In this document: positions 27,704-33,620 of the stretch, piece after piece
Layout: every line of letters starts with the position of its first letter
Numbering within the stretch: the stretch's first letter is position 1
Assembly: GCF_041886205.1 (NCBI RefSeq)
Contig: NZ_CP169029.1
Reading direction: 5' to 3' (one strand)
From: Escherichia coli
GTDB lineage: Bacteria; Pseudomonadota; Gammaproteobacteria; Enterobacterales; Enterobacteriaceae
Length of the DNA: 64,000 nucleotides
Notes under the pieces: model-generated
What the model was told of the DNA's origin: nothing
The model's database searches: none
Seen by the model: the letters and a program-made list of their open reading frames with translations, nothing else
Made by a program: the position numbers and the translations under genes

Positions 27704-27717
27704 TCCGTCTCGCAATA

Positions 27718-27750
27718 CTGACGGATGCGAACGGGCATCCGTCAGTCCTT
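27718..27750 (+). terminator. Candidate intrinsic terminator after grxD
   Basis: 11-bp stem ctgacggatgc/gcatccgtcag with 6-nt loop followed by a pyrimidine-rich tail tcctttctct. Confidence 0.55.
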
Positions 27751-27753
27751 TCT

Positions 27754-30700
27754 CTATCCCCAATCTAGCCCTTGTGGCGAACTTGAAAATCCCGCCTCAC
27801 GCAGCAACGTAAACATCGGCGTTTGCCGGACCGGTAGATCATTCACTTCTGTTAGCGTAAAGCGCAGCCGTGGTTCGCGACGCAGTGCGGTAGTCAGCGC
27901 GTGGAAAATCTCTGGGGCGAGTAATTCCTCTTTTTCCTGCCAGACCAGCATTTTTTTGCCGCCTTGCGCCAGATAGAGTAACAATTTGCCGCCAGAAACG
28001 ACCACCAGCGCACCCGCCCGACGCGTTGGAACCAGCGTTGCCGGATGTGCAGGCCAGGGCAGAAGATTTCCCCACACATTAGCCGGATCGTTGGCGGAGA
28101 GCGCCACTGGTGTATAGTGGCGCGTTTGCGCGGTTTGTGTCGCCAGGTCACGCAATCGATCAATAGTCAGACGTTCAGCGAATTGCGCGCCACCCAGACC
28201 TTCTACAAAACGACCTCGCATAATTCGCCCGGAGTCTTCCATACTTCGACAAAGCGTTTGCATCGATGGAAACCCGCCAGGGATATTTTCGGCTATCACC
28301 GCCTGACGACTGATGATGCCGTAGCGGTCGAGCATATTTTCCGCCAGCGCCAGCATCCTTTCGGTATCGTTTAGTGGCTCCACCTGCAATAACGACCAGC
28401 GTCCAGCCAGATTTGGTGTGTTGTAAGATACCCGCGGCGAGACGGGTTGCGCATAGACAGGACGTCCACGACGAGCCCGGTGACTGCGGCGAGTTGAGGT
28501 GCGTGCGTTGGAACTGCTGCGGGTGAGGGCGCGTAACGGTGCCCAAATGTCGCTGGTGATGACGCCTTGCCAGACCAGCGCCCATAACGCCTCTTGCAGG
28601 GCAGAGAGATCAACCGATTCGCCGATTTTGTCGCGTATCCGTTGGCTGATTTGTTGTGCAAACCAGGCTCCTCCGTCAGCCAGAACAGCGACTATCGCTT
28701 GTTGCAGCGCCGAACGATTCGCCTGATCCGCTTCGGCGGGAGTGAACGATTCTGCAGCATATTCCTGTAGATGCAGTGCCACCAGGCCGTCATCTTCACC
28801 CAGTTTTTTTTGCCCCGACCAGATAACCGCACCGGTTGCCAGTAATTCATCGAGCATTTCTGACGAATAGTCGCGTACGCGGGCAGGCAGGATCTGGCTT
28901 TCCCAGAGTGAGGCGGGTAAACCGACTCCGGCAAGCTGTTCGATCACCCGCATCACGCCATCTACGCCCTCATAAACGCCTGGCGATGTTGAGGCAAAGA
29001 GCGCCGGGCTACCATCGGTGGCGGGTAATACGCCCTGACGTTCCAGCAGCAATCGCGCATAGGTCGTGGCTGCAACGGGACGCGTCGCTTCTCTGGCAGC
29101 TTGCAGCGAGCGCAAACGCAGACGACGAAATACTTCATCGCTCACCCAGATGTCTTGTTGCAGATTCATCACCAGACCCTGTTCACGCAGTTGCTGAAGC
29201 TGCTCTTCGACAATGGCAATACCGAGACTAAACTCATGAGCCAGTTGTTCAGCCGTGACCAGAGCATGAGCCCGGAGATAGCGCAGAAAGAGGTCGCGAA
29301 GCGGGTAACTGACTCTATGTAAATAAATCTCTGGCAATGACTCTGGTAGTCGTACGCCGAGGGCATCACGCAGCCTGGCGGCATCATCCATACAGGCAAG
29401 ACGCTCCTGTCCGCTAATCATCGCCGGGAAGATTCGTTTTACTGCAAGAAGATTTTCCAGATACGACGCAACCTCTTCACTGCTGCCTGTATGCCGTTGC
29501 GCCAGGTCTTCAACGGTCATTGGCCCCAGTTCGCGCAGCAGGTCGAACAATCCTTCTTCACCTTTCGCTCTTCTGCCAGGAGCCAGTCGTTGCAACTCTT
29601 CTTCCACCTGGCGAATGACCTGCGGGTCGAGTAATTCCCCCGGATCGACCTGTCCGAGTAGATTGCGCAGTAACTCGCTGTCCAGCGACAGTACGGATGC
29701 CCGGCGCTCTGCCAGCGGGGCGTCGCTCTGGTACATAAATTCCGCGACATAGCCGAACAATAAACTGGTGGCGAAAGGCGAGGGCGTAGTAGTCGTTACA
29801 TCGGATATTTGAATTTCGCCACCGTTCAGGCGAAGCATCAAACGTTCCAGTGCGGGAAGATCATAAACATCTTGCAGACATTCGCGTAGGGTTTCGAGAA
29901 TGACCGGAAAATCCGGATATCCCTGAGCGATTTCCAGCAACTGACTGGCGCGCAGCCGTTGTTGCCAAAGCGGGGTGCGATGGCCCGGCGTGCGGCCCGG
30001 CATTAATAATGCCCGCGCGGCGCATTCGCGAAAACGGGCGGCGAAAAGTGCCGAACTGCCTACCGCCTCGCGGACAATTTGCAGCAACTTTTCTGGTTCA
30101 AACAAAAAAATCGCGGCATCGGGCAATTTACCATCGGTGTCAGGAATACGTGCAACAATGCCGTCATCACTGGCGACCACCGACGCGTCAGCGCCCCATA
30201 GGGCATGTATTCGCCCGGCAATCGCCAGCGCCCAGGGTTCATGCACCCGTCTTCCATAGGGAGAGTGCAAAATAATACGCCAGTCACCAATTTCATCACG
30301 GCACCGTTCGAGGACCAGATGGCGACTCCCCGGAACGATGCCCGTCGCGTTGCGCTGCTCCTCAATCAACCCCTGAATATTGGCGATCGTATTTTCTTCT
30401 GCCAGCCACGGGGGAATAGTCCCGGAAAAGAACGCGCCATCCGCCAGCAAATGAAGAAAATCGCCGATCATCTCGCCTAATTCAGCCGGACGTCCGTTAC
30501 CTTCACCACGCCAGAAGGGGAGCCGGGCAGAACGACCCGGAGCAGGAGTCACAATCACCTGATCGCGGGTGATTTGCTGGATCCGCCATGAGGTAGCGCC
30601 GAGAGTGATAATGTCGTTCACCCGCGACTCATATACCATCTCCTCATCCAGTTCACCCACCCGCCGCGAACCGGCCTTTTCTTCACCTTCGGGTAATAAC

Positions 30701-32370
30701 ACGCTATACATGCCACGATCCGGAATGGTGCCGCCGCTGGTAACCGCCAACAATTGAGCGCCAGGTCGGGCGGTCAATATCCCGGTCTCCCTGTTCCAGA
30801 CCAGTTTGGGGCGAAAAGCAGAAAAATCGCCAGAGGGATAGCGCCCGGAAAGCATATCCAGCGTGGCGTCAAAAACACGTCTTGGCAGATCTTTCCACGG
30901 TGCGGCACGGCGTACGCGGGAGTACCATTCGTCTACCTGTAATGCATCCATCGCCGCGGCGGCAACGGTTTGCTGCGCAAGGACGTCGAGAGGATTATGC
31001 GGTGGTGTCAGGTTTTCCAGCCTGCCTGCGAACATACACTCTACAATGACTGTGGAATCGACTAAATCACGCCGGGTACGGGGGAAAAACAGCCCTTTAG
31101 ATACACCGCCAACCTGATGTCCGGCGCGACCAATGCGTTGTAACCCACTGGCAACAGAAAGCGGCGTTGCCACCTGAATCACCAGATCCACCGCGCCCAT
31201 ATCAATCCCCAGTTCAAGACTGGAGGTTGCGACCACGCAGCGTAATTCACCCGATTTCAGCGCCTGTTCGGTGATTGCTCGTTGTTCTTTAGAGACGGAG
31301 CCGTGGTGTGAGCGGGCAATAAAAACGTCGCTACTTTGTACACGGTTAGAGGTTGCGCCGGAGGTCGACTCGAAATGGGCCGCATCAACGGCGATAGACG
31401 GGGAACGCTGTAAGCGTGCGGCGTAAAGCTCATTTAATCGTGCCGTCAGTTTTTCCGCCAGCCCCCGCGAATTAGTAAAGACAATGGTCGAGCGATGGCG
31501 CAACACTTCATCAAGGATGCCCGTTTCAATATATGGCCAGATGGAGCCTTCCCGGCCGGCATGGCTGTCTTCGCCAGTGCCGCTGGCGACCGATGAGACA
31601 TCATCCATATTGGCGACCGGTACGACAATCCGTATCTGCGGATGACGCATTGCGGGCGGGTTGACTACCGTAACCGGGCGATCGCCACCAAGAAATGCTG
31701 CCACATCGCTGGCTGAGCGCACAGTGGCAGAAAGGCCAATTCGCTGTGCTGAGGTGTGGAGCAGCGCATCGAGCCGCTCCAGACTTAACGCCAGATGCGC
31801 ACCACGTTTACTGCCCGCTACCGCGTGGACTTCATCAATAATTACCGTTTCGACGCCGCGTAGCGTTTCGCGCGCGCGGGAGGTCAGCATCAGATAGAGT
31901 GATTCGGGTGTGGTGATCAGAATATCCGGCGGATTACGGGTGAGTTTGCTGCGTTCCTGTGCAGGCGTATCGCCAGTACGGATCCCTACGCGAAGATTGA
32001 CTTCCGTTTCGCCGCGCCGCCGCCGTTCATCGGCAATACCCTTCAACGGGATCTGCAAGTTGCGCTGAACGTCGGTGCCCAGGGCTTTTATCGGTGAAAT
32101 ATAGAGGATGCGTGAGGTTTTACGCTTATGCGCCTCGCGGGTATCTTCGCCGCCTTCGCGGAAGAGCCGATCGAGGGCGTAGAGAAATGCTGCCAGCGTT
32201 TTCCCGGAGCCAGTCGGTGCAATCACCAGCGCATGTTCGCCTCGCGCCGCCACATGCCAGGTTTGCGACTGGACAGCGGTCGGCTGTTTAAAGGCGCGAA
32301 GAAACCAGTCGCGGGTCGCCGGTGAAAACACGTCCGGCAGGAGCGATGAAGGGTCTGGATTATCTGCCAT
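27754..32370 (-). CDS. lhr: ATP-dependent helicase Lhr (large helicase-related protein)
   Basis: 1538-aa ORF with superfamily-2 helicase motifs (..APTGSGKT.., DEVH box). Confidence 0.92.
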   Translation of the reverse strand: MADNPDPSSLLPDVFSPATRDWFLRAFKQPTAVQSQTWHVAARGEHALVIAPTGSGKTLAAFLYALDRLFREGGEDTREAHKRKTSRILYISPIKALGTDVQRNLQIPLKGIADERRRRGETEVNLRVGIRTGDTPAQERSKLTRNPPDILITTPESLYLMLTSRARETLRGVETVIIDEVHAVAGSKRGAHLALSLERLDALLHTSAQRIGLSATVRSASDVAAFLGGDRPVTVVNPPAMRHPQIRIVVPVANMDDVSSVASGTGEDSHAGREGSIWPYIETGILDEVLRHRSTIVFTNSRGLAEKLTARLNELYAARLQRSPSIAVDAAHFESTSGATSNRVQSSDVFIARSHHGSVSKEQRAITEQALKSGELRCVVATSSLELGIDMGAVDLVIQVATPLSVASGLQRIGRAGHQVGGVSKGLFFPRTRRDLVDSTVIVECMFAGRLENLTPPHNPLDVLAQQTVAAAAMDALQVDEWYSRVRRAAPWKDLPRRVFDATLDMLSGRYPSGDFSAFRPKLVWNRETGILTARPGAQLLAVTSGGTIPDRGMYSVLLPEGEEKAGSRRVGELDEEMVYESRVNDIITLGATSWRIQQITRDQVIVTPAPGRSARLPFWRGEGNGRPAELGEMIGDFLHLLADGAFFSGTIPPWLAEENTIANIQGLIEEQRNATGIVPGSRHLVLERCRDEIGDWRIILHSPYGRRVHEPWALAIAGRIHALWGADASVVASDDGIVARIPDTDGKLPDAAIFLFEPEKLLQIVREAVGSSALFAARFRECAARALLMPGRTPGHRTPLWQQRLRASQLLEIAQGYPDFPVILETLRECLQDVYDLPALERLMLRLNGGEIQISDVTTTTPSPFATSLLFGYVAEFMYQSDAPLAERRASVLSLDSELLRNLLGQVDPGELLDPQVIRQVEEELQRLAPGRRAKGEEGLFDLLRELGPMTVEDLAQRHTGSSEEVASYLENLLAVKRIFPAMISGQERLACMDDAARLRDALGVRLPESLPEIYLHRVSYPLRDLFLRYLRAHALVTAEQLAHEFSLGIAIVEEQLQQLREQGLVMNLQQDIWVSDEVFRRLRLRSLQAAREATRPVAATTYARLLLERQGVLPATDGSPALFASTSPGVYEGVDGVMRVIEQLAGVGLPASLWESQILPARVRDYSSEMLDELLATGAVIWSGQKKLGEDDGLVALHLQEYAAESFTPAEADQANRSALQQAIVAVLADGGAWFAQQISQRIRDKIGESVDLSALQEALWALVWQGVITSDIWAPLRALTRSSSNARTSTRRSHRARRGRPVYAQPVSPRVSYNTPNLAGRWSLLQVEPLNDTERMLALAENMLDRYGIISRQAVIAENIPGGFPSMQTLCRSMEDSGRIMRGRFVEGLGGAQFAERLTIDRLRDLATQTAQTRHYTPVALSANDPANVWGNLLPWPAHPATLVPTRRAGALVVVSGGKLLLYLAQGGKKMLVWQEKEELLAPEIFHALTTALRREPRLRFTLTEVNDLPVRQTPMFTLLREAGFSSSPQGLDWG

Positions 32371-32462
32371 TAACGCTATTCCCCGTGAATATCATGCAGG
32401 ATGCGTGGAATAGCCTCACTATAGATGCCTGAATCATTATATGTCATCAGGCATCGACTCGA

Positions 32463-33110
32463 TTACACCTCTTCGGCGGTGGGTAGCGGCCAGCCTCCCA
32501 GACGTTTCCAGCGGTTGACGATTTCACAAAACAGCACAGCAGTGCGTTCGGTGTCGTACAGCGCGGAGTGCGCCTGGGTGCTGTCGAAGTCCATGCCAGC
32601 GGTCTGGCAAGCCTTTGACAATACGGTTTGTCCGAGTGCCAGCCCGGCCAGTGCAGCAGTGTCAAAAGTGGCGAAAGGGTGGAACGGGTTACGTTTCAGT
32701 GAGGCGCGTTCTGCGGCGGCCATCATAAAGCTGTGATCAAAATTGGCGTTGTGCGCCACCATAATGGCGCGGTTACAGCCGCTCGCTTTAATACCTTTAC
32801 GTACAACTTTAAAAATTTCGTGCAGCGCCTCGTATTCGCTGACCGCGCCGCGATCGGGATCGTTCGGGTCAATGCCGTTGAAGGCGAGGGCCTCTGGCTG
32901 CAAATTTGCGCCGACAAATGGTTCGACGTGGAAATGTAATGTGGTGTCCGGCATCAGCCAGCCTTGTTCATCCATTTTCAGGGTGATGGCGGCAATCTCA
33001 AGCAGCGCATCGGTTTTGGCATTAAATCCGGCTGTTTCAACATCGATCACAACAGGATAAAAACCACGAAAACGGTCGCACAGACCGGTAAGTTGAGCGT
33101 TATCGGACAT
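32463..33110 (-). CDS. rnt: Ribonuclease T
   Basis: 215-aa [32 protein letters not shown].. with DEDD exonuclease motifs. Confidence 0.93.
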
Positions 33111-33212
33111 CTGATTCTCTTAATACGGATAAATTGCAGCGCGCATTATGACAAATATTACTTGTCGATGCAGTAAAGATGCGGGCGCGATGAGTTCACG
33201 CCCGGCAGGAGA

Positions 33213-33620
33213 TTAGTTGCCCAGACCGCGACCGGCGTCTTTCTCTTCGATTAACTCAATTTTGTAACCGTCCGGATCTTCCACAAACGCGATAACCGTA
33301 GTACCGCCTTTTACCGGACCCGCTTCACGGGTCACGTTACCCCCGTTTTGACGGATTTTTTCGCACGCTTCAGCGGCGTTATCTACGCTAAGCGCGATGT
33401 GACCATAAGCAGTGCCGAGTTCGTATTTATCCACGCCCCAGTTGTAGGTCAGTTCAATCACCGCTTCTTCGGTTTCCGGGCCGTAGCCAACAAACGCCAG
33501 TGAGTATTTGTATTCCGGGTTTTCGCTGGTACGCAGCAGTTTCATGCCCAGTACTTTGGTATAAAAATCGATGGAGCGTTGCAGATCGCCAACGCGCAGC
33601 ATGGTATGAAGAAGACGCAT
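33213..33620 (-). CDS. gloA: Glyoxalase I (lactoylglutathione lyase)
   Basis: 135-aa [33 protein letters not shown].. matching GloA. Confidence 0.93.

Follow-up and report, generated by a model that had tools for sequence, protein, structure and literature searches.

The 92-nt intercistronic spacer between rnt and lhr in Escherichia coli contains a hairpin whose stem has been kept by selection across Escherichia and Citrobacter while its loop has drifted. Judged by its sequence, this hairpin, referred to below as hairpin 1, is most readily understood as an old Z1-type palindromic unit of the rnt–lhr junction, the centre of which has decayed in Escherichia. Tentatively, and by analogy with REP elements that lie between tandem genes, we favour a role for this conserved, Z1-REP-related hairpin as a modest barrier that would favour the rnt message over that of lhr. 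Positions given below are those of the 64,000-nt stretch of contig NZ_CP169029.1 that was analysed, which we call the window.

The spacer (32371..32462, minus strand) separates the coding sequence for RNase T, rnt (32463..33110, minus strand, 215 aa, with its TAA at 32465..32463), from that of lhr (27754..32370, minus strand, 1538 aa, with its ATG at 32370..32368). Both were taken from the list of open reading frames, lhr being identified in addition by its homologues and by Pfam Lhr domains. The two genes are annotated at this locus in 5,425 E. coli genomes, the spacer is of equal length in K-12 (rnt end 1728994, lhr start 1729087), and the segment 32300..32560, which is 100% identical to that of strain 504239, has a single occurrence in 5,425 of 5,426 complete E. 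coli genomes. Co-transcription of rnt and lhr is reported in a passage of PMC8301817 that cites Reuven 1995, and a literature search on rnt–lhr gave no match. After gloA there is a terminator-like hairpin (33182..33204, minus strand; CGGGCGTGAACTCATCGCGCCCG then CATCTTTACT) with a mapped 3' end at 1728279–1728281, and just downstream of it the sequence TGTCATAAT is extended −10-like and could be a candidate rnt promoter. Between the lhr stop codon and the convergent grxD gene lies a 12-bp perfect hairpin (27717..27746; ACTGACGGATGC-N6-GCATCCGTCAGT), which coincides with a very strong grxD 3' end seen by Term-seq (1733703–1733707). On the lhr strand this hairpin is not followed by a U-tract, so that no terminator proper to lhr is evident.

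Hairpin 1 was described in an initial annotation of this DNA as a stable, perfect 9-bp inverted repeat with a 14-nt spacer at 32424..32455, inside the 92-bp rnt–lhr gap, and both the pairing and the stability are borne out. The repeat is GATGCCTGA-N14-TCAGGCATC, and on the mRNA strand the order from the rnt stop codon onwards is UAA-UCGAGUC-GAUGCCUGA-(14 nt)-UCAGGCAUC-UAUAGUGAGG, with the stem starting 7 nt past the rnt TAA and ending 53 nt before the lhr ATG. On the minus strand the 5' arm, GAUGCCUGA (32447..32455), is the same in all E. coli alleles sampled; the loop (32433..32446), which is UGACAUAUAAUGAU in this strain and UGACAUGCAAUGAU in K-12, holds all of the within-species variation; and the 3' arm, UCAGGCAUC (32424..32432), covaries with the 5' arm across genera. 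The corresponding position in MG1655 is 1,729,002–1,729,033. Five of the nine pairs of the stem are G-C, and the predicted RNA free energy is −13.2 kcal/mol as against −4.5 ± 2.0 kcal/mol in shuffled sequences (z −4.26; 0 of 200 shuffles as good); folded as DNA the value is −8.3 kcal/mol (z −4.1). The exact pattern has 0.00 expected occurrences in shuffles of the window. Perfect inverted repeats of at least 9 bp with a 3–20 nt spacer give 54 k-mer hits over the whole window (about 26 distinct hairpins) compared with 5.3 ± 2.8 in shuffles, an approximately tenfold excess; the perfect inverted repeats of the window are thus mostly non-random, and the chance of such a repeat landing in the rnt–lhr gap is less than about 1%.

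Variation within Escherichia is confined to the loop. A 52-nt region containing hairpin 1 is found by blastn at one place per genome in 5,425 of 5,426 E. coli genomes, where it is identical to the window in 356, differs at two positions in 4,712 and at three or more in 357; identity among E. coli alleles is 94–100%. We fetched alleles from each identity class, together with those of E. albertii and two Escherichia clades, and in this sample drawn from the larger set all substitutions lie in the loop, with 5 variable loop positions as against 0 of 18 stem positions. Two adjacent loop positions vary between AU and GC; the other loop variants are A>C, A>G and U>A, the last of which, at the final loop base, results in a 10-bp stem. 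The loop allele of the window (32433..32446) reads TATAAT on the gene strand, as it does in 356 of the 5,425 genomes, with K-12 and most strains having TGCAAT; the TATAAT allele has no usable −35 sequence upstream and the promoter scan makes no call there. Strain ECAMP047 (L100) carries a 10-bp tandem duplication of the hairpin 1 3' arm.

A search with Lhr, followed by retrieval of the genomic contexts, extended the rnt–lhr–grxD order beyond E. coli and E. albertii to E. fergusonii, to a relative designated L089, and to four Citrobacter amalonaticus/farmeri-type loci (L087, L090, L095 and L096). Lhr identity to E. coli is 73% for E. fergusonii, 77% for L089 and 72–75% for the Citrobacter-type loci, and the values for RNase T are 88%, 94% and 90–91% respectively. 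The four Citrobacter-type loci and L089 each have a hairpin 4–7 nt past the rnt stop codon, with a common core GCCTG/CAGGC: AAUGCCUG-N16-CAGGCAUU in L089, UGCCUGAUAA-N7-UUAUCAGGCA in L087, GGCCUGGUAA-N6-UUAUCAGGCC in L090, GCCUGAUA-N8-UAUCAGGC in L095 and AUGGUCUGAUAA-N6-UUAUCAGGCCAU in L096. All of the stems are perfect, being 9–10 bp long in E. coli and 10–12 bp in Citrobacter, and the predicted stabilities of all versions lie between −12.1 and −15.6 kcal/mol despite loops of 6 to 16 nt. Outside hairpin 1 the spacers of Escherichia and Citrobacter are unalignable, and the hairpins at the lhr–grxD junction, unlike hairpin 1, are different in every lineage.

In an alignment of only 10 distinct sequences, trimmed around the hairpin by the analyst, 91.9% of cells are paired as compared with 18–42% in slid-partner controls, and the covariation score is 0.202 as compared with 0.087 in shuffles (0 of 500 as high). 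Three outer pairs change on both sides (G-C/A-U, A-U/U-A and U-A/G-C). Two stem changes are one-sided, A>G in L090 and C>U in L096; both yield G.U pairs in the mRNA but would yield A.C on the opposite strand, and selection on the sense RNA is therefore pointed to, albeit weakly. As the GCCTG/CAGGC core is invariant, the conservation could in part reflect shared ancestry or sequence-specific recognition rather than structure. In E. fergusonii (L086 1266–6623) lhr follows rnt, yet hairpin 1 is absent and a different, weaker hairpin (−7 kcal/mol) is found. The RNase T of this species is farther from that of E. coli than are those of Citrobacter, and the whole rnt–lhr segment may have been replaced.

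The relationship to REP elements emerges most clearly from the Citrobacter homologues. We scored REP likeness by local alignment to the Z1 consensus, which we take to be TGCCTGATGCGCTACGCTTATCAGGCCTACA, in comparison with shuffles; a search with this sequence returns matches of 100% identity at 40 or more places per genome, as a genuine dispersed repeat should. The C. amalonaticus hairpin scores 35 (shuffles 10.9 ± 2.1, maximum 19), and those of L095, L089, L096 and L090 score 29, 27, 22 and 21 respectively, each with a shuffle maximum of 20; the Citrobacter homologues resemble Z1 REPs in matching the consensus over almost its entire length. The match of the E. coli hairpin is weak, at a score of 18 with a nine-match run (z about 3.5; shuffles 10.7 ± 2.0, maximum 22) that occasional shuffles also reach, and 20 other hairpins of the window score 8–16. 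The REP link of the E. coli version would accordingly lie in its homology to those of Citrobacter. E. coli and C. amalonaticus have a common foot, UCAGGCAUC, unlike the UCAGGCCUAC of REP, which argues that the versions are homologous and not independent REP insertions.

Like Z1 REPs such as REP325 in yjdMN and the malE–malF REP, hairpin 1 is an extragenic palindrome of about 30 nt between co-oriented genes and without a U-tract, the foot of its stem, TGCCTGAT...ATCAGGC, is the same as that of the consensus, and its position fits the documented roles of REPs as stabilisers of upstream mRNA and partial attenuators. Nevertheless, we regard it as REP-related rather than as a canonical REP, because it lacks the GTAG/CTAC tetranucleotide at its foot (GGCAUCUAUAG, compared with GGCCUACA in the consensus), because neither it nor its Citrobacter homologues have the mismatch bulge in the stem, and because it is single-copy. 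The GTAG tag and the stem bulge are both needed for binding of TnpA-REP (PMC3479197). No additional copy turns up in 352 kb of window and loci when these are searched with a covariance model of the ten homologues, and fragments of the REP consensus have no match in the window better than chance. The E. coli version differs further from Z1 REPs in that an AU-rich 14-nt loop replaces the GC-rich centre, in having no 3' ends in published maps, and in not being annotated as a repeat in K-12, where the curated record has no repeat feature in the spacer; as this record has no REP feature anywhere in the 49 kb inspected, it provides no positive control. Some species that lack lhr also have REP-like fragments, located ahead of the terminator within the first 40 nt after rnt (L013, L025 and L030; examples are TTTATCAGGC in L013 and GCCGGGTAAGCGCAGCGCCACCCGGC in L030), and it seems that REP-type palindromes are drawn to this location or kept there.

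What might such an element do at this junction? Newbury et al. in 1987 reportedly found that REPs between tandem genes stabilise the upstream message and partly attenuate read-through. More recently, upstream-mRNA stabilisation and partial Rho-dependent attenuation have been described for REPs in this position, with a strong dependence on context (bioRxiv 10.64898/2026.03.23.713779). By analogy with these tandem-gene REPs, hairpin 1 would present a modest barrier to 3'-to-5' exonucleases on the rnt–lhr transcript, and perhaps act as a weak pause or attenuator, with the result that the rnt portion of the transcript would be longer-lived or more abundant than the long (4.6-kb) lhr portion. In terms of ancestry, hairpin 1 would descend from a Z1-class REP palindromic unit, or be close kin of one, and would since have lost the REP hallmarks of tag, bulge and multiple copies. 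A somewhat different precedent comes from Liang, Rudd and Deutscher (Mol Cell 2015), who are said to have found that stop-codon-proximal REPs, within a window of about 15 nt, lower expression of the upstream gene. Hairpin 1 is similar in that its stem begins 4–7 nt past the rnt stop codon in every lineage having the hairpin, and dissimilar in being weaker than typical REPs.

Published maps of RNA 3' ends count against such a barrier being strong. A strong exonuclease barrier should give a 3' end at the foot of the hairpin, and two maps show none. Among the Term-seq 3' ends curated by Adams et al. 2021 for three growth conditions (LB at two densities and minimal medium), none is assigned to rnt or to the lhr 5' UTR, although low expression could hide a weak signal; in these tables the 3' end of gloA, at 1728279 (+), is followed directly by that of grxD, at 1733707 (−), and the rnt–lhr strand is without a Rho-termination region. 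The independent TRS 3'-terminus tables have nothing at 17289xx–17290xx. The initial annotation had held hairpin 1 unlikely to be a simple terminator, which agrees with its 14-nt loop, the lack of a U-tract and a terminator scan that leaves it unflagged, and had suggested instead an RNase-processing or attenuation site, a suggestion that it proposed to abandon if transcript coverage were uniform across the junction and no 3' ends were enriched there. With the published tables empty across the junction that suggestion is weakened, and because both maps are empty at this place and co-transcription is reported, a terminator or strong processing role is unsupported. As hairpin 1 belongs to a REP-like class with documented stabilisation and attenuation, a weak effect on the rnt:lhr ratio is still plausible.

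A second hairpin in the spacer, which the initial annotation had overlooked, may also contribute. Hairpin 2, in the lhr 5' UTR (32371..32418, minus strand), has arms GCUAUUCC (32414..32407) and GGAAUAGC (32382..32375) with three outer pairs, and its pairing takes in the 3' half of GGGGAA (32384..32379), the probable Shine-Dalgarno sequence and the only one of its kind just upstream of the lhr ATG. The fold has a predicted free energy of −14.4 (z −1.7). All Escherichia retain hairpin 2, even E. fergusonii, in which the rest of the spacer cannot be aligned; one pair of the hairpin goes from A-U in E. coli to G.U in L089 and to G-C in E. fergusonii, and a C>U change in strains FP4 and N53 retains a U.G pair. 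By occluding the lhr ribosome-binding site, hairpin 2 would add to the effect of hairpin 1, with Lhr being kept low, and on the predicted fold it is the more plausible brake on Lhr of the two. In strain CFSAN004176 (L002) a 15-bp deletion takes out the hairpin 2 5' arm, and lhr is a pseudogene in the same strain.

A doubtful but serious alternative is that hairpin 1 is a functionless relic, a decaying REP or palindrome that persists through the close kinship of the lineages and has no effect on expression. It would account for the lack of any 3' end, Rho region or other transcript feature mapping to hairpin 1, and for the missing REP centre and tag in the E. coli version; moreover, E. fergusonii manages without the hairpin, and the E. 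coli alleles, at 94–100% identity, are too alike for strong inference. What a relic does not readily explain is the manner in which the hairpin has changed. Compensatory changes have occurred at three pairs and both single-sided changes preserve a wobble pair, stability has remained constant while loops and stems were re-modelled, the Escherichia substitutions fall on 5 loop positions and on 0 of 18 stem positions, and the hairpin is conserved where the remaining spacer and the lhr–grxD junction hairpins have been wholly replaced.

It is unlikely, in our estimation, that the palindrome functions at the level of DNA, as an element overlapping an internal lhr promoter and possibly as an operator for a dimeric regulator. 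There is a sigma-70-like match (10/12) at 32418..32447 on the minus strand, with −35 ATGACA (32447..32442), an 18-bp spacer and −10 TATAGT (32423..32418), arranged such that the −35-like hexamer is in the hairpin 1 loop, the 3' arm is inside the spacer and the −10-like hexamer directly follows the stem. Both hexamers are invariant in the alleles of E. coli, E. albertii and the Escherichia clades, whereas the part of the loop that falls in the spacer varies, and L089 retains a −10-like TATCAT at the same spacing. Such matches are, however, no denser than chance would give (2 found and 1.2 expected in 1.4 kb), this one has an 18-bp spacer and no TG extension, and there is no promoter-like counterpart at the hairpin of the C. 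amalonaticus homologue, nor a promoter-like site at the Citrobacter hairpins. The distance between half sites varies from 12 to 16 bp with unrelated loop sequences, which argues against a fixed dimeric operator, and the wobble-type changes that preserve the RNA stem would be mismatches in a DNA palindrome. No match to the LexA box CTGT-N8-ACAG with one mismatch or fewer is present in 32371..32462, the hairpin 1 palindrome being CTG-N16-CAG. A 23-codon uORF that starts at an ATG in the hairpin 1 loop and ends with a TAG 8 nt short of the lhr start codon was also considered and rejected: it has no Shine-Dalgarno sequence, all E. coli/E. albertii differences in it are nonsynonymous, and neither L089 nor E. 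fergusonii has it.

Among species-representative genomes with RNase T, a scan of 80 Enterobacterales loci finds lhr after rnt only in E. coli and E. albertii. In about 75 other Enterobacterales (loci L006–L085) rnt is followed within a few nt by a bidirectional terminator (AAAAAAAGCGACC-loop-GGTCGCTTTTTT) and the convergent grxD gene, a terminator that is absent wherever lhr is present; a hairpin after rnt is therefore the ancestral habit. With the wider loci included, the lineages that have lhr at the rnt–grxD site are limited to Escherichia, that of L089 and the C. amalonaticus/farmeri group, and Phytobacter has it at another site. As Lhr relatives of about 60% identity are scattered over Proteobacteria, lhr looks to have been horizontally acquired or repeatedly lost. 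It is dispensable in nature; in strain 439 (L003) it is almost wholly deleted, and in Shigella dysenteriae and S. boydii it is truncated.

All four Citrobacter-type loci have an identical 16-mer, CTGTATATTTGACCAG, in otherwise variable surroundings between the hairpin and lhr (L087 1909–1924, L090 1907–1922, L095 619–634 and L096 668–683). This sequence, CTG-N10-CAG, is LexA-box-like and suggests that lhr may be under SOS control in these Citrobacter amalonaticus/farmeri-type loci. A more elaborate and improbable proposal would bring these observations together: that the invariant core and constant stability of hairpin 1 reflect a specific ligand (an RNA- or DNA-hairpin-binding protein, or the ribosome terminating at the rnt stop codon), that hairpins 1 and 2 form a dedicated two-part throttle setting the RNase T:Lhr ratio, and that the Citrobacter spacer adds SOS (LexA) control of lhr. 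Lhr is damage-inducible in mycobacteria, and were this proposal true it would be so in enterobacteria as well.

We consider it very improbable that hairpin 1 is an endonuclease processing site for RNase III or RNase E that separates the rnt and lhr messages. A stable stem between AU-rich single-stranded flanks (the loop UGACAUAUAAUGAU and the downstream UAUAGU) might suit such an enzyme, but RNase III needs roughly 20 bp of stem, far above the 9–10 bp available, and no processed 3' end appears in the two maps. An Rfam covariance-model scan of 31800..33300 also finds nothing at hairpin 1, with three chance-level hits elsewhere (E above 2). That it is a weak intrinsic terminator for rnt can be dismissed: rnt is directly followed by a classic terminator in the approximately 75 other Enterobacterales, but the hallmarks of intrinsic termination are a GC-rich stem, a short loop of 3–8 nt and a U-tract immediately 3', and here the loop is 14 nt, neither strand has a U-tract (the 8 nt past the stem are UAUAGUGA, and GACUCGAU on the other strand), the scan is negative, no 3' end is mapped and co-transcription with lhr is reported. 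The rnt/grxD terminator resembles hairpin 1 in occupying the first nucleotides past the rnt stop codon, and is unlike it in having A-/T-tracts on both sides and a short loop, and in being bidirectional and ending both convergent transcripts. Descent of hairpin 1 from this ancestral terminator as a remnant was considered and rejected, there being no sequence similarity between them and the lhr–grxD junction hairpins differing in every lineage.

Returning to the modest, REP-related barrier that we favour, hairpin 1 adds to the known REP-like hairpins between cistrons and is of little consequence for the field. It does show a REP-like element persisting as a single-copy, structure-conserved relic after loss of the features of REP mobility. 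In practical terms, those who build lhr deletion or replacement constructs or rnt fusions should take account of a hairpin 7 nt past the rnt stop codon and of hairpin 2. The comparative picture is more informative than hairpin 1 itself, with lhr present in some lineages only and a LexA-like box standing before it in Citrobacter.
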